A stretch of 64,000 bases of DNA from a virus (Duplodnaviria; Caudoviricetes): positions 24,436 to 88,435 of the IMG/VR virus record IMGVR_UViG_3300011624_000001. The stretch is one strand, 5' to 3'. The translations under genes and the position numbers were made by a program. The notes below the pieces were generated by a model. It made no database searches. It was not told where the DNA came from and worked only from the letters and a program-made list of their open reading frames with translations. Below are positions 31,114-59,993 of the stretch, piece after piece. Each line of letters starts with the position of its first letter. Position 1 is the stretch's first letter.

Positions 31114-31895
31114 GCCTGTTCGACCAGATCGCCAACAAGGTGTCGGCGGGCATGGCGTCCCGCGTTCCGTCGCTGGGCTCGATCAGTAGCGGCATCAGCG
31201 GCGCACTGGTGGGCAAGTTCGTGCCGAAGAAGCTGCAAGGCAGTGTCAACCGCGCGCTGCGCGGCGACATTGGCGGGGCCATCGCTGACGGCCTGGGCAA
31301 TGCCGTAGCGGGCGCAGCAGCGAATAAGCTGGGCAAGCTGCAACTGCTGGGCGGCATTTCGCTCAGCGAGGCCGAGCGGATCGCCGCCGAGGTGCAATCG
31401 ACCAACTACGCCAAGAAAAACCTGTGGTATCTGCAAATCGGGGAGTGGGAGACAGAGAGCGGCTACGAGGACATCGGGCACGCCTTCAATATGTTCGCCA
31501 CCGATGTGTCCTACTCGTCCCGCTCGATCACCAGCGAGGGCAAGCCTATCGGCATGGGCGCGATGGATGCCATTTCCGGTGCCGAGCGCGCCGAGCTGCG
31601 CATCACGACCTACGATGACGCGCGCGGCACGATCCGAGGCTGGTTCACGTCCAAGCTCGCCAAGGTCGCGCACGATGACGGGACGGTGGGCCTGCCGATT
31701 GAATACCTCATCAAGATTCTTGTCGGCCAGTCGGCAACGGACGAGCTGGGCGGCACCCTATTCGGCCAGTTCACGGAAACCTACCTCCTGCGCCCGACAT
31801 CAATCGAGCATGAGCTGTCTCGCACCGAGGACGGGCTACAGCAAATCCAGATGACGTTTTCCCAGTTTGACACCTTCATGTACAAGGGCACCTAA
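31110..31895 (+). CDS. P1 Tub-like tail tube initiator
   Basis: KNLWYL..FNMFATDVSY..RITTYDD..DGTVGLP; directly precedes the tape measure gene. Confidence 0.55.
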   Translation: MSLFDQIANKVSAGMASRVPSLGSISSGISGALVGKFVPKKLQGSVNRALRGDIGGAIADGLGNAVAGAAANKLGKLQLLGGISLSEAERIAAEVQSTNYAKKNLWYLQIGEWETESGYEDIGHAFNMFATDVSYSSRSITSEGKPIGMGAMDAISGAERAELRITTYDDARGTIRGWFTSKLAKVAHDDGTVGLPIEYLIKILVGQSATDELGGTLFGQFTETYLLRPTSIEHELSRTEDGLQQIQMTFSQFDTFMYKGT

Positions 31896-34051
31896 TGGCA
31901 CTCAATTCCGACCGCGACGGGTTCCTGCTGCCGGACCGCAGCCTGCGCGCCGACGACCTCGCGCAAGGCATCGGCGGCATCAAGCGTAATACCGACGCCA
32001 TCCTGACGCTGCTGCGCGGCCGCACGCGCCACTTGGAGCGCACCCGCGTCGCGAACCCGAACAGCCGCCCGCGCGGCCCTGGTAGCCCGCCTGGGCCTGC
32101 GCCAGCACCAGCGGCGCGCCAGAGCCGCGACCGCGCCTCTATTCCTGTCCCTGTGGGCGGCGGGTCGGCTGGCGGCCCACGCCCGCGTGACGGCCGTGGG
32201 CGGTTCGTGCGCGACCCTGGCGCAGAGGTGGCCGGTGAGGTGCGCCAGTTGACGCGCCAGCAGGCGCAGCAGAACGCCGAGCGCGAGCGCGCCGAGGAAT
32301 CGCGCCGCACCCGCGAAGGCACGGACCAGACGCGCGACTCGCGCGGCCGCTTTGGCGCTGGTGGCGGGTCGGACGGTGGCGCAGCCGGTTCCGACGACGA
32401 CAAGGGGCTGCTCGGCCGGATGAGGGAGTTCTTCAAGGATCACAGCGGCGGCCCGGCGCTCGATGGCGCAGACAAGGTGGACCCGGCCGTGGAGTCGGCC
32501 AAAGAGGTGGCGGGCTTGATGTCCGGCGCTGTCGGCGCGGTCAAGGCTACTGGCGAGCTGGGGCGCGCTGTCGTTGGCCGGGGATTCGGCGGCCGCAGCG
32601 GCGACCGCGAAACGCCCTGGTTCAAGCGCCTGCTGCAACAGCTCAAGCTAATGCGCCGGGATGATGCGCAATTCCATCGAGCCGAGCTGCGCGCGCTGAA
32701 CGAGCCGCGAGCGGCTGGCGGCGGCAGCATTATCACCGACTTGCTCAAGCTGGTCTTTAGCCCGCTAGGGGCGGCTATCGTCGCAGCGCTGGCGGGGGTC
32801 TGGATGGGATTCGGTGACAAAATCACCGGAGCGTGGAGCGGCTTCATCGGCAGCATGAAAGCAAAGTGGGATACGGCAGTAGAGAAATTCCTGGGCATTT
32901 GGGAGCCTATTGCCAAATTCTTCGCCGACAAGTTCGGAATCGTTGCCAGCACGGTCGCAGCGGTAGGCAACAGGGCGAACGAAGCGGTCAAGCAGGCGAC
33001 CGGTGTGGACGTGAAGAATGCAGCCTCGCGCGCTGCCGACGTGGCCGCGTCCAAGGCCGGTTCCCTGGCCGAGCGCTTCAACAAGGGATACCGGCACAAG
33101 GCCATGTTCGACGGCATCAAAGGCGGCGACGATCTGACCAAGTACGGCCGCTACACCGATGCCGAGGCTGCGAAAATCCGCCAGCTAAAGTCGAGCGGAG
33201 CGAACACCAGCGCCCGCCTGCCGGGCGGCATGAGCAAGCAGACGCGCGACAAGATCATCGCGCAGTCCAGGGCGGCCGGGGTGGACCCGGAAACCATGCT
33301 CAAGTTCGCGGCGATGGAGTCGGGCGGAAACCCGAATGCGGTATCACCCACTGGCGCTATCGGCACCTTCCAGATCGTTGGCGGCACCGCGTCCGGGCTG
33401 GGCGTGGCCGACCGCTTCAACGAGGACCAGAACATCGCGGGCGGCGTCAAGCTGGCCCAGGCCAACGCCAAGTACCTGACCAAGCACAAGCTGCCAGTGA
33501 CGGCCGAAAACCTCTACATGATGCACATGCTCGGGCCGCAGGCAGCACGCGAGGTCATCGTGGGTGCGCGCCAGGGCAAGCAGGTAAGCGAGCTGTCGCA
33601 GGGCACGCGCGACGCGATAGCGAAGAACCACGGCAGGGGCGCGAAAACGGCGGCAGAGTTCATCGGCATCAACAAGGGCGCGATGGAGCAGCGCTACGGT
33701 GCCGTGGTGCCAGCAGGCGCGGAAACGCAAATCGCGGCAGGCAAGGCAGGCGGCAATCAGGCCGCTGCGATGCGCGCGGCCAGCGCGCCGGGCAGCGCAT
33801 CGCCGTCGATGATGCCGACGATGGCAGGGACGGTTCCGGCCGTTGGCGTGCTGTCCGGCTCGCCGCGCATCGCGACGGTGACAGTCCCAGCGCAAACGCC
33901 CCCAGCGCCGCCGCCGCGCGCCGACACGCAGATTCCACTGGGAAGCAAAGCGCCGGTCGAGGTCACGGTGCGCAACGGCAGCAAACTGGCCGGGCAGGAC
34001 GTAAAGGACCGGCGACTGGCGCACATCGCCACCGGGGGAATGTCGGGTTGA
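31895..34051 (+). CDS. Tape measure protein with lytic transglycosylase (P1 Sit-like)
   Basis: AAMESGGNPNAVS..GAIGTFQI..TA SLT motifs within a long Ala/Gly-rich helical protein. Confidence 0.8.
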   Translation: MALNSDRDGFLLPDRSLRADDLAQGIGGIKRNTDAILTLLRGRTRHLERTRVANPNSRPRGPGSPPGPAPAPAARQSRDRASIPVPVGGGSAGGPRPRDGRGRFVRDPGAEVAGEVRQLTRQQAQQNAERERAEESRRTREGTDQTRDSRGRFGAGGGSDGGAAGSDDDKGLLGRMREFFKDHSGGPALDGADKVDPAVESAKEVAGLMSGAVGAVKATGELGRAVVGRGFGGRSGDRETPWFKRLLQQLKLMRRDDAQFHRAELRALNEPRAAGGGSIITDLLKLVFSPLGAAIVAALAGVWMGFGDKITGAWSGFIGSMKAKWDTAVEKFLGIWEPIAKFFADKFGIVASTVAAVGNRANEAVKQATGVDVKNAASRAADVAASKAGSLAERFNKGYRHKAMFDGIKGGDDLTKYGRYTDAEAAKIRQLKSSGANTSARLPGGMSKQTRDKIIAQSRAAGVDPETMLKFAAMESGGNPNAVSPTGAIGTFQIVGGTASGLGVADRFNEDQNIAGGVKLAQANAKYLTKHKLPVTAENLYMMHMLGPQAAREVIVGARQGKQVSELSQGTRDAIAKNHGRGAKTAAEFIGINKGAMEQRYGAVVPAGAETQIAAGKAGGNQAAAMRAASAPGSASPSMMPTMAGTVPAVGVLSGSPRIATVTVPAQTPPAPPPRADTQIPLGSKAPVEVTVRNGSKLAGQDVKDRRLAHIATGGMSG

Positions 34052-35175: not shown

Positions 35176-35559
35176 GTGACTCTTGGAGAGCTGGCCCTGT
35201 CGGTCAACTGGACGTTCGGCCTCATCATTGATGGGGACGAGGTAATCAAGCAGGCATGCGCGGCCGCACGCCAGTACCTCGCATGGGGTGAAATCGCCAG
35301 CATTGGCGCTGATGGCGCTCCTGCGGTCCTGGCCGACGTTGACGCGCATTGCGTCATCACCCCGAGCGAATGGGGGCTCATCAAGCCCCTGGCGGCCCTG
35401 TACGTCGAGCGCGAGAATGCCCGCGCCTTGGAGGCCTCGCGCGGCCAGGGTGTCGATGTGTACGGCCGCTCGGTATCGGAAATCGAGCAGTCCATCACGC
35501 AGTACGAAGTGATGGACCTGCCTCGGCTGGCATTTAGCTGCGCACCGGAGTCGATCTGA
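35176..35559 (+). CDS. Conserved P1-like virion protein (UpfB-like?)
   Basis: SEWGLIKPL..LYVERE.A..LEASRG.G.D.YGRS.SE motif. Confidence 0.45.
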   Translation: MTLGELALSVNWTFGLIIDGDEVIKQACAAARQYLAWGEIASIGADGAPAVLADVDAHCVITPSEWGLIKPLAALYVERENARALEASRGQGVDVYGRSVSEIEQSITQYEVMDLPRLAFSCAPESI

Positions 35560-35807
35560 TGGCGGGCGGGCTCATCAACTTCGAGATTTCGCAGTTCCCC
35601 GGCGAGGTGCGCGAGATGGCGAATGGCAACGAGCGTGACCTTGCTTCGTGCGCTGGTCACGATTTCCGCGCCCTCAACCAGTTCATCTACAACTCGCATT
35701 TCGCCTGCACCCGCTGCCAGGGCGTCGTTGACTACCTGACGGCCCTGCGCTTCGGCGCGCAGATGACCGCGCCCTACTACGAGCGCATCGCCCAGGCGGC
35801 CGCATGA
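35559..35807 (+). CDS. Hypothetical protein with CxxC
   Basis: Coupled at both ends (TGATG and ATGA overlaps). Confidence 0.5.
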   Translation: MAGGLINFEISQFPGEVREMANGNERDLASCAGHDFRALNQFIYNSHFACTRCQGVVDYLTALRFGAQMTAPYYERIAQAAA

Positions 35808-36682
35808 TCGCGATAGAGGGAATCTCGCCCGCGTTCCTGCTGGCGGCCTGCCTGCGCTATGACATGGCACCGATCCCGGTGACGTTCGAGGCACAGATTC
35901 GCCTGACCAGTGAAACGGCCCAGGTCGTGCAGGACGGCGCGCTGATCCGCGTAAATGAGATCCCGTTTCGGGTCATCAAGTGCGAGCCGCTGCGCAATGC
36001 GGGCGGCAGCGTGCAGGGAGACTTGCCGCTGTCGGCCGTGGCGATCACGGCGTTCCCTGATGCCCTGGTGGGCGTGGCGCGCAGGCGTCGCGCGGCCGTC
36101 ATCGGCATGAGCACGTCTTTCTCGACCATCTACCGGGCTTGCGGCGCAACCATCGGCGTTGACGGGGATATGAACATCGGCCGGTTCGCGTGCTTCAAGG
36201 GCGAAGTGCCCACGATGCAGCTCGCGCGGGTGCTGCAAGAGGAATCCGCGGTGCTGGTCTGGAAGGCTGGCCGGGTCGCCCTGGTGCGCCTGCGCGACCT
36301 CATGGCGCAGGAGCCGATTGCCGGGCTGACGGTGACGGCATCGGAAGACGTGCAAAGCGACTTTCTCGAAGCCGACGAAATCCCGCAGTACGTGTCCACC
36401 GGCCCGGACGGTGCATTCCTGCTCGGCGAGCGCCGCAACGAGGCCCAGGCGGTCATGTACGCGCCACGAAAGACCTCGCGCGAGCTGGGCCTGATGGGGC
36501 GAGTGCTGGTGCGCCGCAAGATCGTCACCGGACACCCGAACCTCGAAGTGCAGGCCGGGGCCGTGATCGACGTTCAGGGCATTCCCATGGCCGTCATGAC
36601 GGCCGTTCACTACATGCAAAACGGGACCGACGGCGGCGACGTGTCCCAGTATTCGCGCTACTGGCTAGGGAGCTTTAAATGA
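35804..36682 (+). CDS. Baseplate hub protein, P1 gp6-like
   Basis: LRYDMAPIPVTFE motif; precedes the spike gene. Confidence 0.6.
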   Translation: MIAIEGISPAFLLAACLRYDMAPIPVTFEAQIRLTSETAQVVQDGALIRVNEIPFRVIKCEPLRNAGGSVQGDLPLSAVAITAFPDALVGVARRRRAAVIGMSTSFSTIYRACGATIGVDGDMNIGRFACFKGEVPTMQLARVLQEESAVLVWKAGRVALVRLRDLMAQEPIAGLTVTASEDVQSDFLEADEIPQYVSTGPDGAFLLGERRNEAQAVMYAPRKTSRELGLMGRVLVRRKIVTGHPNLEVQAGAVIDVQGIPMAVMTAVHYMQNGTDGGDVSQYSRYWLGSFK

Positions 36683-44625: not shown

Positions 44626-44768
44626 TGTTCATCGACAAAGTCATCCCCAGCATCATCCTTACGGTGTGCGTATGGGCGGTGCTGGATAAACGCCTCAAGA
44701 CCCGCACGCTGGGCACGGTGGCGCTGTCCATGATCGCCCTGCGCGCGGTGAGCGTCCTGTGCAGCTAA
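44625..44768 (+). CDS. 47-aa two-TM protein (holin partner/antiholin candidate)
   Basis: Read by hand: TAATG overlap; MFIDKVIPSIILTVCVWAVLDKRLKTRTLGTVALSMIALRAVSVLCS. Confidence 0.6.
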   Translation: MFIDKVIPSIILTVCVWAVLDKRLKTRTLGTVALSMIALRAVSVLCS

Positions 44769-45400
44769 TCACGCTCGACCAGCTCACCGCCATCATGCCC
44801 GGCGCGCGGGCGGTGGCGGCCGCGTTCATCGAGCCGCTGGAGCGTGCGATGTTCGAGTTTGCCATTGTGAGCGAGCTGCGCGTCGAGCACTTCACGGCGC
44901 AGATCGCGCACGAATCCGGCCAGCTCAGGAAGATGCAGGAGGGGATGAGCTACAGCGCTCAGCGCCTCATGGAAGTGTGGCCGTCCCGCTTCCCTACTCG
45001 CGCCATTGCTGACGCCTATGCGCACCGCCCGGAGGCCATCGCCAACAAGGTGTACGCCAACCGCATGGGCAACGGCAACGAGGCCAGCGGCGACGGCTGG
45101 CGGCACCGTGGCGCGGGGCTCATCGCCCTGACCGGCCGCGCCAATCAGGAGCGGTGCGCCAAGTATTTCGGCATCCCTCTGGCGCAGATCGGCGACTGGC
45201 TGCGCACGCCCGAGGGCGCATGCCGCTCGGCCGCGTGGTTCTGGTCCGAGGCCGGGTGCAACAAGCTGGCCGACAAAGACGACCTCGACGCCGTTTCGGA
45301 CGCCATCAACATCGGGCACCAGACGGCCGCCGAGGGCGACGCCATCGGGTATGCCGACCGCCTCGAATTTCTCACTGTTTCGCGAAGGGTGATCGCATGA
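44759..45400 (+). CDS. Endolysin, glycoside hydrolase family 19
   Basis: HFTAQIAHESG..YANRMGNG..GDGWRHRG.GLI.LTGR..SAAWFW. Confidence 0.9.
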   Translation: MQLITLDQLTAIMPGARAVAAAFIEPLERAMFEFAIVSELRVEHFTAQIAHESGQLRKMQEGMSYSAQRLMEVWPSRFPTRAIADAYAHRPEAIANKVYANRMGNGNEASGDGWRHRGAGLIALTGRANQERCAKYFGIPLAQIGDWLRTPEGACRSAAWFWSEAGCNKLADKDDLDAVSDAINIGHQTAAEGDAIGYADRLEFLTVSRRVIA

Positions 45401-45990
45401 AGGAAATCAAGTTTGTCCTGTCCCTGATGACGCCTCGCGTATGGGTCGTGTTGCTCCTGCTGGCCGCCCTGGTGCTGCTGGCCGGGCTCGGGATGGGCGG
45501 CTACGTCGGCTACCGCGTCGCTGACGGGCAGGCGCAGATCGCGGCGGGGAAGGTCGAGCGCGAGCGCGCGGCCGAGCGGCTGGCGCTGGCCCAGGAGCGG
45601 CTTACCCACGCGCGCCACCTGAGCGAAGCGAACGAACGGACCGACGCCACCGAAAAGCGTTGGCAAGACAAGCTCGGCACTGTCGCCGAGATTCACAAGG
45701 AGCAGATGGATGATGCACGAACGAAAATTGATGCTTTGCGCGCTGATGTGCTCACTGGCGCTGTCCGGCTGTCTGTCGCAGTCAAAGCAGCCGGAATCGC
45801 AGCCAGTAGTTGCACGCCAAGCGGAGATTCCACCGCTGCCGGTGGCGATCAAGAAACGCGAGCCGAACTTGTGCCGCAGGCTGCTCACGACCTTATCGGC
45901 ATCGCAGCCGATGGCGACGACGCGGTGCGCGACCTCAACGCCTGCATCGACGCCTACCACGCCATAGAGAGAAAGCAGGAGCAGCCATGA
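45397..45990 (+). CDS. Inner-membrane spanin (Rz-like)
   Basis: N-terminal TM, coiled coil, C-terminal DLNACIDAY. Confidence 0.85.
   Translation: MKEIKFVLSLMTPRVWVVLLLLAALVLLAGLGMGGYVGYRVADGQAQIAAGKVERERAAERLALAQERLTHARHLSEANERTDATEKRWQDKLGTVAEIHKEQMDDARTKIDALRADVLTGAVRLSVAVKAAGIAASSCTPSGDSTAAGGDQETRAELVPQAAHDLIGIAADGDDAVRDLNACIDAYHAIERKQEQP
45710..45967 (+). CDS. Outer-membrane spanin lipoprotein (Rz1-like), embedded in Rz
   Basis: Lipobox LSGC; Pro-rich; nested in a different reading frame. Confidence 0.8.
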   Translation: MMHERKLMLCALMCSLALSGCLSQSKQPESQPVVARQAEIPPLPVAIKKREPNLCRRLLTTLSASQPMATTRCATSTPASTPTTP

Positions 45991-46181
45991 GCCGTACCAA
46001 GGAAGACCGGGACGCGCAGCGCGCACGCGGCGCGCTGATCCCGAACGGGAGCTGCCATTTTTGCGGCTACAAGGTGCCGCCGAAGGCGCATTGGTGCTCG
46101 GGCGAATGTGCCCAGGATCATGCGGCCGAAACTCGGCACCAGGGCGGTGCCGAGGGCCAGCCGGGTCATTCCGGCTTGTAG
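45987..46181 (+). CDS. Small Zn-ribbon protein
   Basis: CHFCG..WCSGEC; ATGA overlap. Confidence 0.6.
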   Translation: MSRTKEDRDAQRARGALIPNGSCHFCGYKVPPKAHWCSGECAQDHAAETRHQGGAEGQPGHSGL

Positions 46182-46489
46182 TGCTCTTTGACGAGCTTTT
46201 CGATGTAGGGGATCAGGGCCGCATCCATGATCTTCTGCAACGACTTGTGACCGGGCACGTTCTCGGTGATCCACTCCATCTTGGCGTGAATCTGTCTCGT
46301 ATGCTTCCAGTTCAGCAGCGTGGTCTGCTCGGCGCTGGCGTTCTCCCACGGCGCGACGATGCGCGGCGGGCTAAAGTCCAGTGGTGCCTGTCCTGCCCCG
46401 ACCTGCTGGCGCACCTGCACGCCGCCATTGACCGGCACAAGGTCCGACGGATTGAAGGTGAATCCCGGTCGGAGTGCTAATTTTTCCAT
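46166..46489 (-). CDS. stbC: Plasmid stability protein StbC-like (RHH)
   Basis: PWE..LLNWK..KMEWITENVP..SLQKIM matches the StbC pattern; last gene of the stb operon. Confidence 0.6.
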   Translation of the reverse strand: MEKLALRPGFTFNPSDLVPVNGGVQVRQQVGAGQAPLDFSPPRIVAPWENASAEQTTLLNWKHTRQIHAKMEWITENVPGHKSLQKIMDAALIPYIEKLVKEHYKPE

Positions 46490-46508
46490 TTGAGGTTCCT
46501 CTTTCTGT

Positions 46509-46721
46509 TCAATGCGGGCCGATCACCAGCGCGACGATTGCCCCGCCCGCCAAGCCGCCTACAAGCGCGGCCACGGCGACCAGGGCCGCTACCTTGCGCG
46601 CACGCGCCAGCTCGGCCTGGGCGGCCGCCTGGACGGTCTGGTGCAGCGCTTTAACCTCGTCGTGCAGCTTCCCAACGTCGCCGAGCATTTCGGCGATCAA
46701 TGCGTCCAGGGCGGTTCCCAT
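46509..46721 (-). CDS. Small coiled-coil protein with C-terminal membrane anchor
   Basis: Within the stb operon; ALIAEMLGDVGKL plus a hydrophobic tail. Confidence 0.6.
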   Translation of the reverse strand: MGTALDALIAEMLGDVGKLHDEVKALHQTVQAAAQAELARARKVAALVAVAALVGGLAGGAIVALVIGPH

Positions 46722-46729
46722 GCCCTGCC

Positions 46730-47428
46730 CTACTTCGTCAGGGCTTTGAAGGCCGCATCATGTTCGCTCTTGACCCCGGCCGCAAGGCGCTTGATCCCGC
46801 GCAGGCGGCTGATGCGCAGCTTCTCGCCTGGGTCCGTCGCGTCCTTGAGCAACTGGGTCAGGTCGGCCGGGTCATCGAGCACGCCGTTGATGGTTTGGTC
46901 CGCGCCTGCGAGCTTGCCATAAATATCATTAACGTGCAGCACTGCTTTTGGGTTCAGGGTGAAGCTCTTGTCGGTTTCGTGCAGCTCGAACAGGCCCGAG
47001 AACACTTGCTCGATCACCTCGTCCACCTCGACCATGTTGAACAGGAGGCGGATTTTCTTCGCGGGCACGCCCAGCTCGGCCAGGGCGTCAATGGTCGAAA
47101 TCGTGTCGCGCTGCTGCTTTTTCGCCGGGGTGGTCGGGATCACGAAGAAATCGAAGTCCTCATGGCTACCGCGATATTGTTTCATCTGCAAAATCAGCGC
47201 CTCGATATTGGATGCGCCAATATCGACCACTACATCATCGACCATCGCCATCGCTTCGAGGACATTACCGAATTCTCGCCCTTTCACGCGGCCGACATCA
47301 TCGTGTTCATCCGCATTGATGGTTTCGACCGCGATAATATCGCAGTCATTCATACGAGGTTTCAGGACGTGGCGGGCAACAGTGGATTTACCTACGTTGC
47401 CGGAAAAGCTGAGAACACCGATTTTCAT
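46730..47428 (-). CDS. stbB: Plasmid stability ATPase StbB (ParA/MinD-like)
   Basis: SFSGNVGKST..VVVDIGASN..YRGSHEDFDFFVIPT.P..KQQRDT signature. Confidence 0.85.
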   Translation of the reverse strand: MKIGVLSFSGNVGKSTVARHVLKPRMNDCDIIAVETINADEHDDVGRVKGREFGNVLEAMAMVDDVVVDIGASNIEALILQMKQYRGSHEDFDFFVIPTTPAKKQQRDTISTIDALAELGVPAKKIRLLFNMVEVDEVIEQVFSGLFELHETDKSFTLNPKAVLHVNDIYGKLAGADQTINGVLDDPADLTQLLKDATDPGEKLRISRLRGIKRLAAGVKSEHDAAFKALTK

Positions 47429-47871
47429 TTCTGAGTACCTTTCAAGTTTTTTATCAGTGGGTTTGAATTGGAGCCGATAAATCTGTCGGCTCGTTCTTCC
47501 CGTCGTTTTCTGGTTTCCATTATTTCGGAAACCGCTTCATGCTGATCGTTCGCCTCTGGCTCGGGGGTGCCCCCCTCCCCTATTGGCACGATGGTTTCTG
47601 CATTAACACTCGGACCCGCTGGCGCTATTTTCGGTGCTGCTTTGGACTTCCCATGACGTATGCGCCAAAGCATTGACGAATACGCGCTCATTTTCAGATC
47701 AAAGCCACTTTTATTTAGTGCCTCCAATATATGCTCATGCGAAACACCGGCCGCTTGCAGCGCTTCAATTTCGGGTAGGAGCTGCCGCAAGCGAGCGGTT
47801 TTCTTCGTCACCTTCGTGCTGTCGTTTGCCAGGGCGCGCAGCGCGTTCGCTGCATCCTGTATGTCTTCCAT
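47425..47871 (-). CDS. stbA: Plasmid stability DNA-binding protein StbA-like
   Basis: LLPEIEALQAAGVSHEHILEALNKSGF..AYSSMLWRIR; coupled to stbB; AGGAGAGGG RBS. Confidence 0.7.
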   Translation of the reverse strand: MEDIQDAANALRALANDSTKVTKKTARLRQLLPEIEALQAAGVSHEHILEALNKSGFDLKMSAYSSMLWRIRHGKSKAAPKIAPAGPSVNAETIVPIGEGGTPEPEANDQHEAVSEIMETRKRREERADRFIGSNSNPLIKNLKGTQK

Positions 47872-47896
47872 AGCACGACTGCCCTCTCCTGTACTG

Positions 47897-48200
47897 GAAG
47901 AAATAGTATGTAAGTTTTCTGTCAAGTAGTCAAGAAAATATATTTATTTGGTAAGAATTTACGTGATAAATCGAATGAAATAGCAAGAAAATGTAAGTTT
48001 TTTGTAGTGTTTCGCGTAAGGCTGCTTGGTTCTTCATGCTCCTGTCTTGAGCTGCCGCCCACTCGACTCCTGCATGTTCGACCGCTTGGCGCTGCTCGGC
48101 GCGCAAAAATTCCGGCGCGCCCGGCCGCGCTGCCCGCCGCGTGCGCAATGACGCCGACTCGGCACAAAAACGAAGAAAATTCAGCGGCCAAAACTCAAGA
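47897..48200. repeat. AT-rich region with (C/G/T)AAGAAAAT-like and ATGTAAGTTTT repeats (candidate StbA centromere/operator)
   Basis: Copies at 47897, 47931, 47952, 47984 and 48172; ATGTAAGTTTT at 47908 and 47991. Confidence 0.5.
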
Positions 48201-48348
48201 ACGAAAATCGGTGATATTCTTGCGGTTATATTGGGAGTTTCTAGGAAAATATATAATACTGTATAGTTTTATATATTCGATGCGCGTCCGAAGTTGCCGC
48301 GCGAGCGCGGAGCGGCGAGAATCGGCGGGAAATTTGAGGGGTGCAGAA

Positions 48349-48386
48349 TTAAACAGAGCAATTCGGTTTTGAATCGCTCTGTTTAA
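48349..48386. repeat. 16-bp-arm inverted repeat with 6-bp spacer (terminator or recombination site)
   Basis: TTAAACAGAGCAATTC-GGTTTT-GAATCGCTCTGTTTAA. Confidence 0.7.
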
Positions 48387-48397
48387 ATCCGGTCAGG

Positions 48398-48586
48398 TTA
48401 ATTTTGCTGCGGTTTGCTAGGCTTGCATTTTTCGGAACAATAGCCCTCTGCTCGCCACGAAAGCCATTTGACGGCCAGGAATGTCGCGCCGCATGAGCAG
48501 CGCTTAGTTTCGCTAAATTCCTGGGGTGGGAACACAGCGGCCGGGGCCGCTGGTTCGACTGGTTCATCAAATAGGTTGAATTGCAT
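48398..48586 (-). CDS. Small Cys-containing hypothetical protein
   Basis: MQFNLFD..CSCG..YCSEKC; overlaps the upstream gene end. Confidence 0.55.
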   Translation of the reverse strand: MQFNLFDEPVEPAAPAAVFPPQEFSETKRCSCGATFLAVKWLSWRAEGYCSEKCKPSKPQQN

Positions 48587-49508
48587 CGCTATTTGGACCG
48601 GATTGCGCGGTAGTATCCGTCGCAGCGCGCAGCTTTGCCACTTCGTCGCGAATCGACAGCAATTCCTTCAAGGTGCCCGCGTCCACTGGCACTTTTTCGT
48701 CGTCTCGCATAGCGACCAATTCATCAGCCCGATATGGGAGCTTGTCGAATAGGACGCCGATGGAATCAGTAGCGCGCGTTACCAGCTTGCGTGGAACAGC
48801 CCGCCCCTGGACTGACTTGAGCGTCACCTTGCCCTTGCCGCTGGCCTTGAGCGCATTCTGGACGACCTTCCCGGCGTCGCTGCCGTGCTCGCGCACGATT
48901 TCCACGGCGGCCGTGCTCGCCACCTCGCCTGCGCGAATGGCTGCTTTCAAGTCCGGCTCGGCGCGCGCCAGCATCAGGCAGTTTTCGATGTGGGTCGTGG
49001 ACTTGCCCTGACGCGCAGCGATCTTTGCGATGTCCCAGCCAAAATTCATCAGCTCGATGTACTTTTCGCCCTGCACCAGCGGCGATACCCCGAGTCCCTG
49101 GCCGCTGGACAGCATGTGCGAGATTTGTTCGTCCAGCCCGCCCTTGAACTCGACAGCCGACATATCGCCCAGGTCGCGGCCGCTTGGGAAGCCAGCGCGG
49201 AATTCCTCGATCAGCTCGCGCACCGCCCACATGCGATGCTCGCCATCCACCATGAAGATGACGGACTTCTCGGCCGTGCGCTCGACGGCAACGTCGATAG
49301 GCTTGAGCTTGACCCCGCCACGGATCGCCTCTTTGATGTTGTCGATGTGTTCGCGGCTGAGCGGGCGGTTGAAGCCTGGGCGAATTTGGACCTTGAAAGG
49401 ATCGACCTTGAAACTGGTTTCCTTCGATACGCCTTCAATGGCCTTGTCCTCGGCGGCGGCCTTGAGTGAGGTGAATTTTTCGGCGTCGGCGGGCTGTTGG
49501 GTGGTCAT
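48567..49508 (-). CDS. ParB-like (ParB_N/Srx) DNA-binding protein
   Basis: IRPGFNR..KPIDV..MVDGEHR; HTH IAKIAARQGKSTTHI. Confidence 0.75.
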   Translation of the reverse strand: MTTQQPADAEKFTSLKAAAEDKAIEGVSKETSFKVDPFKVQIRPGFNRPLSREHIDNIKEAIRGGVKLKPIDVAVERTAEKSVIFMVDGEHRMWAVRELIEEFRAGFPSGRDLGDMSAVEFKGGLDEQISHMLSSGQGLGVSPLVQGEKYIELMNFGWDIAKIAARQGKSTTHIENCLMLARAEPDLKAAIRAGEVASTAAVEIVREHGSDAGKVVQNALKASGKGKVTLKSVQGRAVPRKLVTRATDSIGVLFDKLPYRADELVAMRDDEKVPVDAGTLKELLSIRDEVAKLRAATDTTAQSGPNSDAIQPI

Positions 49509-49528: not shown

Positions 49529-50755
49529 TTAGGCGGTGGGCTTGAGGATGGTGCGCTCACCGCTGGCGGCCATCGGGCTTACGATACCTTCGGACTCCAT
49601 GCGCTCGATGAGGCGCGCGGCTTGGTTGTAGCCGATGCGCAGGTGGCGCTGGACCAGCGAGATAGAGGCGCGCTCGTTTTCACGCACGACCTTGACGGCC
49701 TGCTTGTACTTTTCGTTGTCGTCCAGGCTGATGGTCTTGCCGCCCACGGTCAGGCTGATGCTCGCGCCATCCTGGGCGGCCAGCTTGTGCAGCGCGCGCA
49801 CGGGTTCCTGCACACCGCCGCCCTCGGCAATCTGGTGCTGGCCGTCGCTGTCAGCGTCGCCGATGGCGGCCTCGCCGCCGAGCACCTCGACCAAATCGGC
49901 CAGCATCTTCGCATATTCGAGCGTCATGAGCGTCACATCGTTGTCGAAGCGCTCGTCGTCGCTGTGGGTAATGGCGGTGCCTTCGCGCAGCACGTCCAGC
50001 GGCTTGATGCCCTTGACCGCCAGCGACTCGTCCAGGGTGAACGAAATGCGGTCGTTGTAGGTCAGTGCCAGCTTGACGCACTGCTTGCCTGCGGCGATGT
50101 GGCGGCGCATATCGTCCGGTTCGAGCGTGTGCAACTTGTAGGTGACGGTGGCGCGGCTCTCGCCGCTCGCGCGCAGGGTGGCGTTCTGGTCGATGGTGAA
50201 CCCGTACGGCCCTTCATCAGCTTCCAGCCAGCCGGTCATCACGGCCACTGGCGACTTCTTCACGCGCAGCGACTCCAGCGGCATCTTGTCCACGGCCTTG
50301 AGCAGCAGCTTCACCACGTCGTCGGCCTTGCTCGGGCTCGATGCGTCCACGACCAGCCAGCCGTTCACAGGGTCGATCCAGACCCAGGTGTCGGAGTCCT
50401 TCGGGAAGGCCTTCACCAGCAGCTCGTCGGTGACGCGCTCTTTCAGTTCCTTGGTCGCTTTCTTCCCAGGTGGGAATCCCTGCTGTTCTTCAAACACAGC
50501 CGCGCGCTTGCGCACCTCGGCGTTGATGACGGAGCCCGGCAGCACCTTCGTTTGCGTGCGCAGGCGCAGCAGCATTTGCCTGTTGACGACGTGGACCAGC
50601 TCGCCGCCCGCGCGAGGTGCGACCCAGCCCAGGCGCAGGGCTTCGGACTTGGTGCAGTCGGTAAAAGACTGGTGCTCGATGGCCTCGATCAACTGGGCGG
50701 CGGTCAGGGCGTAGGGCGCTGGCAGGCGGTAGATTTGTGCGTTCTTGAAAAACAT
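49529..50755 (-). CDS. rdgC: RdgC fused to C-terminal FtsK gamma domain
   Basis: MFFKNAQIYRL RdgC start; ASISLVQRHLRIGYNQAARLIERMESEGIVS gamma motif. Confidence 0.9.
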   Translation of the reverse strand: MFFKNAQIYRLPAPYALTAAQLIEAIEHQSFTDCTKSEALRLGWVAPRAGGELVHVVNRQMLLRLRTQTKVLPGSVINAEVRKRAAVFEEQQGFPPGKKATKELKERVTDELLVKAFPKDSDTWVWIDPVNGWLVVDASSPSKADDVVKLLLKAVDKMPLESLRVKKSPVAVMTGWLEADEGPYGFTIDQNATLRASGESRATVTYKLHTLEPDDMRRHIAAGKQCVKLALTYNDRISFTLDESLAVKGIKPLDVLREGTAITHSDDERFDNDVTLMTLEYAKMLADLVEVLGGEAAIGDADSDGQHQIAEGGGVQEPVRALHKLAAQDGASISLTVGGKTISLDDNEKYKQAVKVVRENERASISLVQRHLRIGYNQAARLIERMESEGIVSPMAASGERTILKPTA

Positions 50756-51658: not shown

Positions 51659-52223
51659 GTTTAATTCTCCATTTGTGAATCGTCAGCAGCGACATAAAGC
51701 AGGGGAGGTCGGTCGGGTCCGTGAACTCCTGCAAGCGGTAGGTGCCATCCGGGCGCAGGCCCAGCGCGAACCGCTTTTCGATGCCAGCGCCTTCGAGGTT
51801 GTGCATTTCCTTATAGGCCGCAAGCTGCGGCCCGATAACCGGGCCGAGCTGCATCATTTTCTTGATGTCCACCACGGACTTGACGCCCCGGATCGCGCCG
51901 GTTCGGTCGGACGTGCCGCAGTAGCCAAGCGGGTGGTACATGCGCTTCTCGATGGTGTCGGGCACGAACTCGACCTCATCGCGAAACCGCTTCCAGCCAT
52001 TCAGGTAGGGCACCAGGATCGGGTCCAGATCATCCTCGTCCAGCGTGCCCGCGTCGTACAGCTCGGTCGTCAGGTGAACCATGGTGCCCAGCTCGCTCGC
52101 GCGGCGCAGCACGTCAGGATTGATGGCCGAGTAGTCCACCAGCGGCTTGAGGATGCCCGTTACCGACGGGACTAGCGTCCCGTTGTAGCGGTATTCGTGG
52201 CGGGCTTCGTCAAAAACTAGCAT
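51648..52223 (-). CDS. PD-(D/E)xK exonuclease
   Basis: VPSVTGIL..GTMVH..YCGTSDR..VVDIKK..QLAAY. Confidence 0.8.
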   Translation of the reverse strand: MLVFDEARHEYRYNGTLVPSVTGILKPLVDYSAINPDVLRRASELGTMVHLTTELYDAGTLDEDDLDPILVPYLNGWKRFRDEVEFVPDTIEKRMYHPLGYCGTSDRTGAIRGVKSVVDIKKMMQLGPVIGPQLAAYKEMHNLEGAGIEKRFALGLRPDGTYRLQEFTDPTDLPCFMSLLTIHKWRIKHGK

Positions 52224-53521
52224 CACTTCGCCTTGAGCCATTCCAGCACGCTAGGGAACAGCGGCACCGTCAGCGCGTCCGGCTCGATGCCGAATTGTTC
52301 CTTGAACTGGTCGGTCGTCTTGCCGCCCGTCGTGTCGAGCTGGGCTTTGACGAACGCGATTTTCGAGGCCGCCAGCGGTGGGCCTGCTGGTGCTTTCGCC
52401 GCTTGTTTTTCCGGCTCTGGCGTGGCCGCCGCTGCCGGGGCGGGCGTCCGTACCGGACGCTTTGACGTTATCTTCTCGGAAGTCGGCTCTGGCGCTGGGT
52501 CGGCAACCGGCTCGGGCTCGAACAGGTTGCGGGTGCGCGTGTCGATGCTGGCGTCCAGCACTTCGCCGGTAGCCATATCGACGCCCGGCACGTTGGACGG
52601 TGGGGTTGCCTCGGCGGCTGGTGCTGGTGCTGGCGCTGGGGCTGGCGCTTCTGCTGCCGGTTCCGGGGCAGGGGAGGGCGCTGGCGTCTGGACCGGCTCG
52701 ACCACTTCTGCGGCTGCTGGTGCTGCCTTGGCGCGCGGCGCGCGTGGAGTGCGCGCAGCATCCTGGGCGTCGCCGTTCGACTGCATGGCGAGCGATCCAT
52801 CAGCCTGGGGCACCACGTCGATGATGTCGTGCAGTTCCTCGGCAGTGGGCAGGCCCATGAGCAATTCCGGGTTGTAGGTGCGTCCGAAGAACGCCGCCGC
52901 CCGGTACTGCGCCATCACTTGCGGCATGGTTTTCCATTTCGAGCCGTTGCGCGTGTACCAGCCCTCTTGCACAGCCATTTCCAGGGTAACGGGTGGCGAC
53001 TCGACCAGCTCGCCGGTTTTGTCTTTCGTCCAGGCGACGCAGCGCGCGTTCTGGATGCGGACAGTCTTGACGACTTCGGTCTTGACGTTGTTGATCCACT
53101 CGAACGTCAACTGCTTGGCGTCCACCTCATCCAGCCACTCGAACTTGAACCGCAGATTGTGCGCGTACAGGCCACTGTTGTTGATGAGCGCGATGATGAA
53201 GGGCGAGCCCCAGCTCGGGCGGCCTTCGATGACGTGCAGGTTTTGCATCACTTGCAGCGGGCTCGCATTCATGCGCTGGGCCAGATCGAGCGCGACCATG
53301 CAATTCGGCAGGGCGGCGTCGTTCTGCACCCATTTCTTATCCCTGCCGTAGCCCTCGGACACGACGGCCTGATACGCGGCCGGGACCATCGTGGAGGACG
53401 CGAACAGCTTGGCCGCGCGCTGCATGAACTCGAAGGCGGCGAGGTTCTGGAATCCCATCATGGTCGCCGCATCGTGCGTGGCGGCCAGGGCGGTGACGGT
53501 GGATTGTTGGTTGTCGCTCAT
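52223..53521 (-). CDS. RecT/Bet-like single-strand annealing protein
   Basis: SPLQVMQNLHVIEGRPSW..SKWKTMP..M..YRAAAFFGR..PELLMGL.T.EE. Confidence 0.8.
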   Translation of the reverse strand: MSDNQQSTVTALAATHDAATMMGFQNLAAFEFMQRAAKLFASSTMVPAAYQAVVSEGYGRDKKWVQNDAALPNCMVALDLAQRMNASPLQVMQNLHVIEGRPSWGSPFIIALINNSGLYAHNLRFKFEWLDEVDAKQLTFEWINNVKTEVVKTVRIQNARCVAWTKDKTGELVESPPVTLEMAVQEGWYTRNGSKWKTMPQVMAQYRAAAFFGRTYNPELLMGLPTAEELHDIIDVVPQADGSLAMQSNGDAQDAARTPRAPRAKAAPAAAEVVEPVQTPAPSPAPEPAAEAPAPAPAPAPAAEATPPSNVPGVDMATGEVLDASIDTRTRNLFEPEPVADPAPEPTSEKITSKRPVRTPAPAAAATPEPEKQAAKAPAGPPLAASKIAFVKAQLDTTGGKTTDQFKEQFGIEPDALTVPLFPSVLEWLKAK

Positions 53522-53538
53522 GGTGGTGTCCTGTGCGC

Positions 53539-53691
53539 TTAATGGGTTGGGGTTTCGATGAGGCGCGGCGGGACCAGCATGTGCGGGTACGGCGTGAGGC
53601 CGCGCTGTTTCAGGTAGCGGCGGGCCAAAACCCACTTTGCCGCCAGGGTACGGTCGCCGAACAACTGGCGGGCTTTGGCGGTGGTGCTCAT
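53539..53691 (-). CDS. Small hypothetical protein (50 aa)
   Basis: Read by hand: MSTTAKARQLFGDRTLAAKWVLARRYLKQRG; ATGA overlap. Confidence 0.5.
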   Translation of the reverse strand: MSTTAKARQLFGDRTLAAKWVLARRYLKQRGLTPYPHMLVPPRLIETPTH

Positions 53692-53831
53692 ACCGGCAGC
53701 ACCACGACGGAGCAGAGGTAGCCGAAACGGGCGGCGGCAGCTTCAAGCGCTTCGCCGCTGGTGAATGCGGCCTGGTCGAATTCGTGGTGCTCGCCGTCGG
53801 GGGTCTGAACTTTTACGCTGTATGTACTCAT
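53688..53831 (-). CDS. Small hypothetical protein (47 aa), first gene of the leftward early operon
   Basis: GAGAG-type RBS before ATG 53831. Confidence 0.55.
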   Translation of the reverse strand: MSTYSVKVQTPDGEHHEFDQAAFTSGEALEAAAARFGYLCSVVVLPV

Positions 53832-57933: not shown

Positions 57934-58710
57934 GTGATGGTCATGGAGCCGGACGGCCAGGGCGGCGTCCGCGAGGTGCCCCGCATGCTGTCGGCCATCG
58001 ACCGCCTGTATGGCCGCTTCGCCTCCATGTACATGCACAAGTGGAGTTCGCACTTCACTTCCCCGGCCGTGATCGCCGATTGGAAAAAGGCGTGGTCAAG
58101 CGCGCTGATCGCCGAGGGGATCACGCCTCGGCTTGCGCTAGAAGGCGTCGAGCGGTGCCGCACCGAGTACCCGACGTGGCCGCCGAGCGAGGGACAGTTC
58201 ATCGCCCTGTGCAAGCCGCCCCTGGACTACGAGCAGGCATTCCGCGACGCGGTGCGCGAGCTGCGCAAGCGGCTGCTGAACGATCCAGAGAAGGTGCCGC
58301 ACTGGCCGATCCCGGCGCTGTACTGGGCGGCCGTGGACTACGGCCAGGGGGAGCTGATTGAGGCGAGCTACGGACAGGCCGCGGTTCGCTGGAAAAAGCT
58401 CTTGGACAATCGGCTCAAGGGCGACTGCCCGGACGTGCCACAGTATGTCCCGCAGCTCGCCGCCCCAGTCATGAACGACAAGGGCGAGGCGATCACCAGC
58501 GCCCAGGCGAAGGCCGACGCGCTGGCCGCCATGCGCGCCCTGGTCCGTCGCCAACCGTCGCCGGACGTGGCCGCCGCCAAGGCGCGCGAGGTGCTGGCCC
58601 GGCATGCAGCGGGTGAGCCGTTCCTTCCGATCCAGTTGAGCCATGCGCGTGAAACGCTGGCCCGGCTGTCGGACCCGGCCACCGCCCCGGACGACGACGA
58701 ACCCATTTGA
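57934..58710 (+). CDS. Replication protein P-like (helicase loader family)
   Basis: WPPSEGQF..LC..W...ALYWAA motifs; follows the initiator. Start uncertain (ORF open from 57850). Confidence 0.65.
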   Translation: MMVMEPDGQGGVREVPRMLSAIDRLYGRFASMYMHKWSSHFTSPAVIADWKKAWSSALIAEGITPRLALEGVERCRTEYPTWPPSEGQFIALCKPPLDYEQAFRDAVRELRKRLLNDPEKVPHWPIPALYWAAVDYGQGELIEASYGQAAVRWKKLLDNRLKGDCPDVPQYVPQLAAPVMNDKGEAITSAQAKADALAAMRALVRRQPSPDVAAAKAREVLARHAAGEPFLPIQLSHARETLARLSDPATAPDDDEPI

Positions 58711-59993
58711 CCGAGAGTACCGCCATGAAGCAACAAATCCTTGAACTGATCCTGAGCCGCCCGAATATCCGCACGGTCGAGATTGCTGACCGCATCGACT
58801 GCGACGTGGAAAGCGTGCGCCCGCTGATCGCGGACGAGCTGCGCAGCGGCGTCATCGTGGAAGAAGATATTCGCGCGCCGAACGGCCGGATCGTCCAGTC
58901 GTTCCGGTACGCCAGTGCCGTGGCTGTCGCCGAGGTCATCAAGGTGCTGCCGCCCGAGCCGTTGCCCGCCCGCGTGCTGCGCGCGCTGCCGCCGACCGAG
59001 CGGCCGACTGTTCCGCGTGCCCAGGAGCCGAAGCGCACCCCGAAGCCGACGCAAGCACCAGCGCCGAAGCCAGCCCCGGCACCAGTTGCCGCCCCAGCGC
59101 CGACCCCTGTTGACGCGCAGGCCGCTGCCGAGCCCCTGGAAATCGACGTGCCGGTGTCGCTCAAGCCCGGCGTCACCCTGGCAGCGCCGCCTGCCAGCGG
59201 CAAGGCGAAAAGCCGCGTGGATATGGCGCTCGACTGCCTGCGCGCGGCTGGCGGCAAGTCCGTGACCAGCGGCCAGTTGATCGAGGCAATGGGTGTGCCC
59301 AAGCACCACTCGCCATCGTCCTACCTCAAGTTCGCGCTGAAAGACGGGCGGGTGGCGCGCAGCGAGAATGGCTGGATCGCTGGCCCGGCGCTGCTGGCCG
59401 ATTCCGTGGGTGCTGGCGCGGTGGGATTCGCTGGCGAACCAGCCCTGGACGCCGTGGAGCTGCCCGAGCCTGCGGTGGCGGTACGCTCCAAGCCGTCCGA
59501 AGTGGCCCTGGTCGAGCCGACCGCTACAGTTGCCCCTGCGCCCGTCGTCAGTGACCAGCCCGCCGCCCAGGTCGATCCCGATGCGACCGCGCCGAAAGAG
59601 CGCTACCCAGCGCCGTCGTTCTTGGCCCCGCAAGCCGAGGCCGTGCGCATTGGCGGGTCGAGCAACTACCCATTGCCGCCCGTTGCCGAGGGCGCGCCCG
59701 ACATCACCCGCAATGGGCTGTACGAAAACGGGGAGTTCCGTAAGCCTGCGGACGAGCTGCTTATCGTCGGCGGCATTGGCGTGAGCGGCGGCCTGTCCGA
59801 AAGTGTGAATATCGGACAAGAGGCAGCGAACGAGCCTGCCCCGGAGCGATTCCTGGCAGGCGTGATGTCCGACGGCTCGCTGTACTTGAGCGTGCCCGGC
59901 AATGCGCCGATGAGCCTTACGCCTGACCAGGGCCGTGAGCTGTTCGATTTCCTGCGCAAGATGGGGTATGCGGCGTGGCCGACGGCAGCGTGA
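58707..59993 (+). CDS. Multi-wHTH Pro/Ala-rich hypothetical protein
   Basis: Two HTH-like blocks (IRTVEIADRI; VTSGQLIEAMG) joined by PA-rich linkers. Confidence 0.65.
   Translation: MTESTAMKQQILELILSRPNIRTVEIADRIDCDVESVRPLIADELRSGVIVEEDIRAPNGRIVQSFRYASAVAVAEVIKVLPPEPLPARVLRALPPTERPTVPRAQEPKRTPKPTQAPAPKPAPAPVAAPAPTPVDAQAAAEPLEIDVPVSLKPGVTLAAPPASGKAKSRVDMALDCLRAAGGKSVTSGQLIEAMGVPKHHSPSSYLKFALKDGRVARSENGWIAGPALLADSVGAGAVGFAGEPALDAVELPEPAVAVRSKPSEVALVEPTATVAPAPVVSDQPAAQVDPDATAPKERYPAPSFLAPQAEAVRIGGSSNYPLPPVAEGAPDITRNGLYENGEFRKPADELLIVGGIGVSGGLSESVNIGQEAANEPAPERFLAGVMSDGSLYLSVPGNAPMSLTPDQGRELFDFLRKMGYAAWPTAA

Follow-up and report, generated by a model that had tools for sequence, protein, structure and literature searches.

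A stbABC module of conjugative-plasmid type in a temperate phage that probably lives as a plasmid

Introduction

In the IncW conjugative plasmid R388, StbA segregates DNA without any plasmid-encoded nucleoside triphosphatase and StbB opposes it, an antagonism which sets nucleoid-bound inheritance against delivery to the pole or membrane, and stb operons sit beside the origin of transfer, oriT (PMC3098194). Segregation of R388 requires two arrays of five repeats, stbS, at 11-bp spacing (PMC3098194; bioRxiv 10.1101/2022.04.29.490116), StbA also represses several R388 promoters (bioRxiv 10.1101/2022.04.29.490116), and the third product, StbC, is termed an orphan in the R388 stb papers (PMC3098194; bioRxiv 10.1101/2022.04.29.490116). 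Segregation by Stb in R388 is nevertheless poorly understood, and the activity of StbB is hard to separate from the transfer machinery. Here we describe a stb locus at positions 46166-47871 of a 64,000-bp stretch of viral DNA (the window), which corresponds to bases 24436-88435 of a single 88,435-bp IMG/VR virus record, IMGVR_UViG_3300011624_000001. The best reading of this record is an extrachromosomal prophage with Stb and without transfer genes, and a phage lineage which keeps stbA, stbB and stbC intact in the absence of transfer genes offers a natural case of separation of function.

Results

The locus carries stbA, stbB, a short stbC and a fourth gene

The locus is filled exactly by four co-oriented genes of the minus strand, in the order stbA, stbB, short stbC and an extra gene for a predicted ribbon-helix-helix (RHH) protein. 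Their sizes are given in amino acids (aa):

47425..47871, minus strand: stbA, 148 aa; pairwise match to R388 StbA
46730..47428, minus strand: stbB, 232 aa, ATPase of the ParA/MinD superfamily; its start overlaps the stbA stop
46509..46721, minus strand: short stbC, 70 aa; N-terminal motif and C-terminal transmembrane helix
46166..46489, minus strand: fourth gene, 107 aa; conserved N-terminal tail, C-terminal RHH-like domain and a strong ribosome-binding site

An earlier reading of this DNA, made from the sequence only, had noted StbA-, StbB- and StbC-like genes in canonical order. The StbB-like gene proved to encode a clear member of the StbB family, as its product scored 282.1 bits against NF041292 (cut-off 200) over the full length (1-230 of 233). 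Its identity is 48% to R388 StbB and 59% to the StbB of a Sulfuriferula plasmid, the highest value among the plasmid StbBs in that comparison. Its deviant Walker A motif, residues 9-15 (SGNVGKS), has the SGxxGK[T/S] form defined for the R388 group (Guynet et al., PMC3098194), and F8, S9, G10, N11, V12, G13 and K14 were invariant across 34 homologues. The StbA-like gene, directly upstream of stbB, was likewise confirmed: we observed 31% identity to R388 StbA over 108 residues (BLASTP, pairwise E 4e-20), the N-terminal region aligning with the helix-turn-helix (HTH) DNA-binding half of the R388 protein. The MxDIQ start and the N-terminal half of StbA are kept in six phage loci, and an AGGAGA-type ribosome-binding site precedes the MxDIQ methionine in the six related loci. 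A TTG start at 47925 was rejected in favour of the ATG at 47871, since the six loci share this methionine and its ribosome-binding site.

The canonical order therefore stood for stbA and stbB, while the assignment of stbC had to be changed. The 107-aa open reading frame (ORF) had been taken for StbC and the membrane-anchored 70-aa ORF for an extra gene. We found no similarity between the 107-aa ORF and R388 StbC; the 70-aa ORF is the normal third stb gene and encodes a StbC homologue, R388 StbC being membrane-anchored too. The 70-aa protein carries the N-terminal motif ALIAE(M/L)LGDVGxLHD, of which A-x2-AE-x-LGDVG was invariant in 12 sequences when BLASTP and alignment were used to compare it with R388 StbC and with third genes from another five stb operons (Xanthomonas, L003; TrfA-type plasmids, L014-L016; an unrelated phage, L021). 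Its residues 47-67, in the C-terminal helix, have a mean Kyte-Doolittle hydropathy of 2.4. It is much shorter than the plasmid StbCs, whose long middle part is gone. R388 StbC (L002:3710-4096) itself has the N-terminal A-x2-AE-x-LGDVG and the terminal membrane helix which are common to the third genes of diverse stb operons. Judged from these alignments, the comparison shows that StbC is a small conserved family and no orphan. We also considered that the 70-aa and 107-aa ORFs might be the two parts of a split plasmid StbC of 171-203 aa, and rejected this because the 107-aa ORF matches none of those StbCs. A Pfam scan assigned no family to StbA, StbC or the 107-aa ORF, and an Rfam scan of 45900-48700 gave no match.

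The element is probably a temperate phage maintained as a plasmid

The record is 97% complete by CheckV, and its ends overlap by 122 bp, the last 122 bases being the same as bases 3-124. It is colinear, gene by gene, with pBVIE05 (CP000621.1), a finished circular plasmid of 88,096 bp from Burkholderia vietnamiensis G4, on which a literature search found no paper, and the virion proteins of the two are 55-70% identical. The first and last genes of the contig adjoin in pBVIE05, which indicates that the contig contains no host DNA and that its map is circular. Furthermore, tyrosine integrase (PF00589) and rve transposase (PF00665) are both absent from the record, where the sole recombinase is a 199-aa serine recombinase of the resolvase/invertase type. 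The proposal that the contig should be circular and free of an integrase is thus supported by the end overlap, the adjacency of the end genes in pBVIE05 and the lack of both families, and terminal repeats in a relative, the IMG/VR record G001, are a further indirect sign of a circular replicon.

The virion is that of a contractile-tailed phage, with a portal (phrog_1497), a sheath (phrog_1036), several tail fibres, DarA/DarB-like proteins and packaging genes. Its portal is 26% identical to P1 Prt and its phage matches belong to the P1 group. The description of the element as P1-like is accordingly right, in a distant sense, for the virion module only, and the element is not a Punavirus. For lysogeny and replication the genes are of lambdoid type. 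There is a CI-like S24 repressor, and an HTH_36 initiator-like protein together with a lambda-P-like one recalls the lambda O/P pair; a RecT-like protein and exonucleases accompany them. Taken together, the element is probably a temperate tailed phage living as a plasmid. Two side observations come from this annotation. A 428-aa protein encoded after the lambda-P-like gene matches no recognisable family (window 58707-59993, plus strand; 52223-53746, minus strand), and ARAGORN called a tRNA-Ile(GAT) at window 33782-33853, inside a 718-aa transglycosylase/tail ORF (31895-34051) of the same strand, which is probably a false positive.

The sequence-only reading had seen no transfer machinery and had set Stb against the parABS system of P1. 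On the first count it agrees with our searches, in which the relaxase families TrwC (PF08751) and MOBP/Q (PF03432), the coupling protein (PF10412) and VirB4 (PF03135) were all absent from the 88-kb record; with no relaxase, coupling protein or VirB4 present, the leading-region position beside oriT that is typical of R388-type Stb is not seen here. The contrast with P1 also holds, as the record has neither a classical ParA (AAA_31, PF13614) nor, at E 0.01, a ParB_N domain (PF02195), although an orphan ParB-like gene close to the locus, described below, had not been weighed.

The module is conserved and was probably captured once from a conjugative plasmid

A protein search recovered StbBs 63-97% identical to that of the window on long contigs, and the same four genes were found in the same place in the independent assemblies L008/L009, L010, L011/L012, L013, L018, L019 and L020. 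At least eight related phage contigs have the same module, and P0006 has this order in its gene list too. Genes for CI, RecT-like protein, exonucleases, RdgC-FtsK-gamma and the ParB-like protein, followed by a spacer, stand before stbA and stbB in this shared context, and a StbC of 70-105 aa, an RHH gene of 107-115 aa and lysis or virion genes come downstream. A 91,370-bp IMG/VR record with terminal repeats (G001), whose portal is 83% identical, also carries StbB.

The ratio of nonsynonymous to synonymous substitution rates (dN/dS) was computed against six relatives, with dS up to above 1. It was 0.20-0.27 for stbA, 0.035-0.24 for stbB, 0.12-0.45 for stbC and 0.08-0.19 for the RHH gene, so that by this measure all four genes are under purifying selection. 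As to composition, the impression that the locus is more AT-rich than its flanks is real for stbA (51.7% G+C, hereafter GC), stbB (56.2%) and the upstream spacer (47.9%), the element as a whole having 63.8%. Conjugative plasmids and all related phages likewise have stbAB 3-10 points under its flanks in GC; the unrelated phage record G003 does not. The dip being common to stbAB of conjugative plasmids and all phage relatives, it is a property of the module and does not date its acquisition. An assembly chimera, or decaying passenger DNA without function, could also produce a segment of lower GC than its flanks, and we give this a negligible chance: the same junctions occur in at least eight independent assemblies, the four frames are intact, dN/dS stays far below 1 at dS up to above 1, and the GC dip is shared by the stbAB genes of conjugative plasmids and related phages.

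The nearest StbBs outside the phage clade, 77%, 68% and 65% identical, belong to plasmids with TrfA, relaxase, VirB4 and a long StbC. A quick maximum-likelihood tree was computed for 124 StbBs. In it all phage-borne proteins formed one clade of 10 rows (99 in the Shimodaira-Hasegawa-like approximate likelihood-ratio test, SH-aLRT), sister to StbBs of TrfA/relaxase/VirB4 plasmids, with which it lay inside a clade of 17 rows (SH-aLRT 100). At the DNA level, 48013-46644 of the window is 70-75% identical to two of these plasmids (L014 and L015), over the distal operator repeat, stbA, stbB and the 5' part of stbC. This homology stops before the inverted-repeat region which, in the plasmids, lies beside their RHH gene and is the place where oriT is expected. 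The simplest history is that the promoter-stbABC segment was captured once, free of transfer functions, and has since been passed on vertically for a long time under selection.

These data also bear on mobilisation in trans, in which StbA and StbB would deliver the DNA to the secretion apparatus of a conjugative plasmid in the same cell (TrfA/PromA- or IncP-like) by way of an unrecognised oriT in the AT-rich spacer upstream of stbA. In its favour, conjugation is the one process in which R388 StbB has a demonstrated part, and stb operons have oriT as their neighbour (PMC3098194); outside the phage clade, the StbBs closest to that of the window come from conjugative plasmids; and a conserved palindrome is present upstream at 48248-48277. 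We nevertheless allow this only a small chance, since the element has no relaxase or coupling protein, the plasmid homology ends at the distal StbA repeat and so leaves out the inverted-repeat region where oriT would be expected, and the spacer has no similarity to that region of the plasmids.

Candidate StbA sites at the stbA promoter and the region upstream

The region upstream of stbA contains the following features:

47905..48013, minus strand: stbA promoter/operator region, candidate StbA binding site
47933-47928 and 47910-47905: promoter, TTGACT and CATACT with a 17-nucleotide (nt) spacer
47908-47918 and 47991-48001, minus strand: two exact copies of the 11-mer AAAACTTACAT
47950-47960: degenerate repeat AAATTCTTACC, between both exact copies
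48014..48397, minus strand: phage-specific spacer with an AT-rich palindrome, short GATTTTCG-like repeats and a variable GC-rich stretch
48398-48586: small 62-aa ORF after the ParB-like gene
48567..49508, minus strand: ParB-like gene, 313 aa, orphan, about 640 bp upstream of stbA

The proximal copy of AAAACTTACAT overlaps the spacer and the -10 element of the TTGACT-17-CATACT promoter. The 9-mer core AAACTTACA has 3 occurrences in the 88 kb, where base composition would predict about 0.1. The repeats are invariant in six phage loci despite StbB divergence down to 63%, and AAACTTACA repeats with the same CTTGACT box stand upstream of stbA in the conjugative plasmids L014 and L015. On the other hand, plasmid L016, whose StbA is more distant, has about ten 11-bp repeats of a different sequence in an R388-like layout. 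Since L014 and L015 share the repeats and L016 has an array of its own, the operator sites appear to travel with their StbA; in the present element they are few and dispersed.

A third genomic copy, ACAAAAAACTTACAAT, lies outside the window (L006:13040-13056, genome coordinates) and has 15/16 bases as in the distal stbA site. It is located at genome position 13041 in a short intergenic gap between two minus-strand genes, far from stb, where StbA may control a further promoter, as it does in R388.

In the spacer, 48248-48277 is an AT-rich imperfect palindrome with 13-nt arms and a 4-nt loop, which is kept in all six related phages and is single-copy in the element. It has no counterpart in pBVIE05, and the spacer (48014-48397), which shows conserved blocks when six phage loci are aligned, has none in pBVIE05 or in plasmid stb loci. 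The palindrome could be an origin, a binding site of the ParB-like protein or an oriT. A LexA box was rejected, as only a single ACAG half is present.

The ParB-like gene was assigned to the phrog_1033 ParB-like partition proteins (E 2e-42), and its scores of 22.3 bits on HTH_ParB and 26.7 bits on TIGR00180 are both below the cut-offs. It is 34% identical to pBVIE05 35285-36007 and is kept as a neighbour in the phage clade and in pBVIE05. If StbA were purely regulatory, partition would fall to this ParB-like protein. R388 StbA does repress several promoters as well, the third motif copy ACAAAAAACTTACAAT stands far from stb, and the ParB-like gene is kept in the clade and pBVIE05 whatever the ATPase module. 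We hold such a division of labour to be improbable, however, as ParB_N (PF02195) was undetected in the record at E 0.01, the palindrome is single-copy and absent from pBVIE05, and it would not account for stbB, stbC and the RHH gene being conserved.

Adjacent to these genes, the window encodes at 49529-50755 (minus strand) a 408-aa protein in which RdgC is fused to FtsK gamma, kept in L010-L013, L018 and L019. The FtsK gamma domain normally reads the KOPS sequences (FtsK orienting polar sequences) and activates XerD. The fusion protein might link the prophage to host dimer resolution.

The fourth gene encodes a predicted RHH protein

Plasmid stb operons are without this fourth gene. The 107-aa protein is 40% identical to the C-terminus of Bcep1808_7724 of pBVIE05 and 28% identical, over most of its length, to Bcep1808_7725. 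In pBVIE05 these two genes come after a 225-aa classical ParA (KGGxxKT); in the element the 107-aa gene comes after stbB and stbC. The family is tiny, with 16 proteins. An AlphaFold2 model built from 7 sequences was too poor (predicted local distance difference test, pLDDT, 57), and a model with 16 homologues gave a strand-helix-helix at residues 55-103 with pLDDT 79-90. When residues 58-107 were compared exhaustively with known structures, almost all of the best matches were RHH proteins, including ParB of pCXC100 and omega, at modest Z scores of 3.3-4.6 and a root-mean-square deviation of 1.9-3.9 Å across 41-49 residues. Foldseek against the PDB returned nothing at E 0.001, and a profile search of PDB sequences gave chance matches only. 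The language-model neighbours of the protein were ParG, CB_ParB_C, DUF5388 and RHH clusters, with similarity scores of 0.90-0.92 which we treat only as leads. Prediction of a complex of StbB with the 107-aa protein scored 0.00, which is evidence neither way.

These observations bring to mind a hybrid type Ib system, where StbB would have replaced an ancestral ParA and would pair with the ParG-like RHH protein as motor and adaptor, leaving StbA mainly as repressor of the operon. Such an arrangement would agree with the position of the 107-aa homologues after the classical ParA of pBVIE05, with a predicted RHH fold and conserved N-terminal tail resembling ParG, omega and pCXC100 ParB, and with the leads from the language model named above. 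But we identified no repeat array for the RHH protein, its structural matches are weak, none exceeding Z 4.6, and the family numbers only 16 proteins; we therefore give the hybrid a slim chance.

The locus is a slot for maintenance modules

The placing of the locus between lysis and early genes, already apparent to the sequence-only reading, was upheld by the genes on its two sides:

Lysis side: GH19 endolysin, 44759-45400; Rz-like spanin, ending at 45990
Early-gene side: ParB-like protein, RdgC-FtsK-gamma protein, exonucleases, RecT-like protein and CI-like repressor

In pBVIE05 the same place holds ParA, two RHH-like genes and RepB, so that, by this gene-order comparison, the locus is a slot for swapped maintenance modules.

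Occurrence of StbB in other replicons

StbB was found in 1627 PLSDB records, of which 1251 are conjugative, 151 mobilisable and 225 non-mobilisable. Among 50,697 GenBank phage records we found none at E 0.001. The suggestion to look for stbB in phage collections was rewarded in IMG/VR, where an alignment-based scan detected it in 5 viral contigs; this kind of scan was required, as a single-sequence scan returned nothing. Two complete IMG/VR records with StbB (G002 and G003) are unrelated to the window. G003 has 57,754 bp, a terminase and stbA-stbB. No tyrosine integrase, VirB4 or PF03432 relaxase was found in G001, G002 or G003, and full-text literature searches found no paper describing Stb in phage-plasmids. 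G002 (L021, L025-L029), a high-GC record, has 94,661 bp and terminal repeats. It encodes a terminase, a portal-adaptor and an internal virion protein besides a full stbA-stbB-stbC, and it contains open frames of about 5,200 and 2,100 aa.

Discussion

We consider it probable that the Stb module partitions the plasmid prophage and so serves its inheritance; from homology and conservation, a role in segregation is the most likely one. The element would be a circular temperate myovirus of roughly 88 kb maintained as a plasmid. An ancestor of the clade would have captured, from a TrfA-type conjugative plasmid, a contiguous segment that includes the StbA operator repeats, takes in stbA and stbB and reaches into stbC; the segment would have come without oriT, relaxase and type IV secretion genes and been set beside a resident gene for a ParG-like RHH protein. 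StbA would bind the AAAACTTACA repeats at its own promoter, repress the operon and, as in R388, mark the DNA for positioning over the nucleoid, while StbB, as a ParA-family ATPase, would modulate this positioning. The short StbC may be a membrane-anchored accessory. The RHH protein may act as a second DNA-binding or regulatory partner and could be the remnant of an older ParA-ParG-type system, which is still at this locus in pBVIE05. The outcome would be stable inheritance of a low-copy prophage.

Several points weigh against this reading. StbA reached only 19 bits on the curated model NF041290 (cut-off 100), and its membership consequently rests on the pairwise match to R388 StbA and on its position upstream of stbB. 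Two exact copies and one degenerate copy of AAAACTTACA, 40-83 bp apart, are unlike the 2 x 5 array of R388. R388 can do without StbB as far as its stability is concerned and requires it for conjugation alone (PMC3098194), so that a part of StbB in partition of the element is only putative. The orphan ParB-like neighbour could be the real centromere binder. No dedicated plasmid initiator of RepA, RepB or TrfA type was recognised anywhere in the record, in which no search aimed at RepA was made and which has only the lambda O/P-like pair. Finally, IMG/VR lists the record as linear, and its plasmid state is deduced from a relative. In this phage lineage stbABC has been under long purifying selection, at synonymous divergence above 1, in the absence of transfer genes, which argues that StbB and StbC are useful for vertical inheritance.

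A bolder proposal is that Stb has been freed from conjugation and rewired. StbB might then be a ParA-type motor for the ParG-like RHH adaptor, for StbA or for both; alternatively, the antagonism of StbA and StbB might now serve the prophage as a switch between its upkeep as a plasmid and lytic replication or packaging. We think this unlikely, and if it were true it would reveal an activity of StbB and StbC that is independent of conjugation. In a wider sense, maintenance modules are traded between phage-plasmids and conjugative plasmids at a fixed slot, occupied by ParA-RHH-RepB in pBVIE05 and by stbABC-RHH in the element. At least three phage lineages unrelated to one another have Stb modules, though these are absent from GenBank phage records.

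Comparison with known systems

Like stbABC of R388, the operon of the element has the order stbA-stbB-stbC with overlapping stbA and stbB, a StbB (48% identical) with the SGxxGK[T/S] Walker A motif, a StbA of 31% identity, a StbC with the N-terminal motif and C-terminal membrane helix, and direct repeats around the promoter. Unlike R388, the element lacks oriT, relaxase and type IV secretion system, both near the operon and in the rest of its sequence, and it has AAAACTTACA in two to three dispersed copies where R388 has ten TTGCATCAT at 11-bp spacing; its StbC is only 70 aa, a fourth gene for an RHH protein is attached, and the replicon is a phage. The TrfA-replicon conjugative plasmids known from metagenomes (L014, L015; StbB P0005 77%, P0014 68%) come closer, having the nearest StbBs outside the phage clade, the CTTGACT promoter, the AAACTTACA repeats and 70-75% DNA identity from the repeats into stbC; they differ in having TrfA, relaxase and VirB4, a StbC of 171-203 aa with an extra C-terminal domain, and no RHH fourth gene.

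The P1 prophage, which uses parA-parB-parS, is likewise a temperate myovirus and a low-copy plasmid, the latter state being, for the element, drawn from its relative, and the two have a distantly related portal (26%), sheath and DarA/DarB-type proteins. The element is unlike P1 in that it lacks a type Ia ParA-ParB pair and a tyrosine (Cre-type) recombinase; it has a CI-like S24 repressor and lambda O/P-like genes, a C1-type repressor, RepA and RepL not having been searched for. With pBVIE05 it shares the ParB-like and RdgC neighbours, the 107-aa homologues and the lack of integrase and transfer genes, whereas the position of stbABC is taken there by a classical ParA (KGGxxKT), two RHH-like genes and a RepB initiator (L004:37900-41167). 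As for the type Ib RHH adaptors, ParG of TP228, omega of pSM19035 and ParB of pCXC100, the 107-aa protein resembles them in its small size, in having a conserved tail at the N-terminus and a strand-helix-helix domain at the C-terminus, and in the placing of its homologues after a small ParA; it differs from them in having no sequence similarity to these families and in standing beside StbB rather than a classical ParA. Set against all these, the module is a known system in a new kind of replicon, one without oriT, with few repeats, a short StbC and an added RHH gene.

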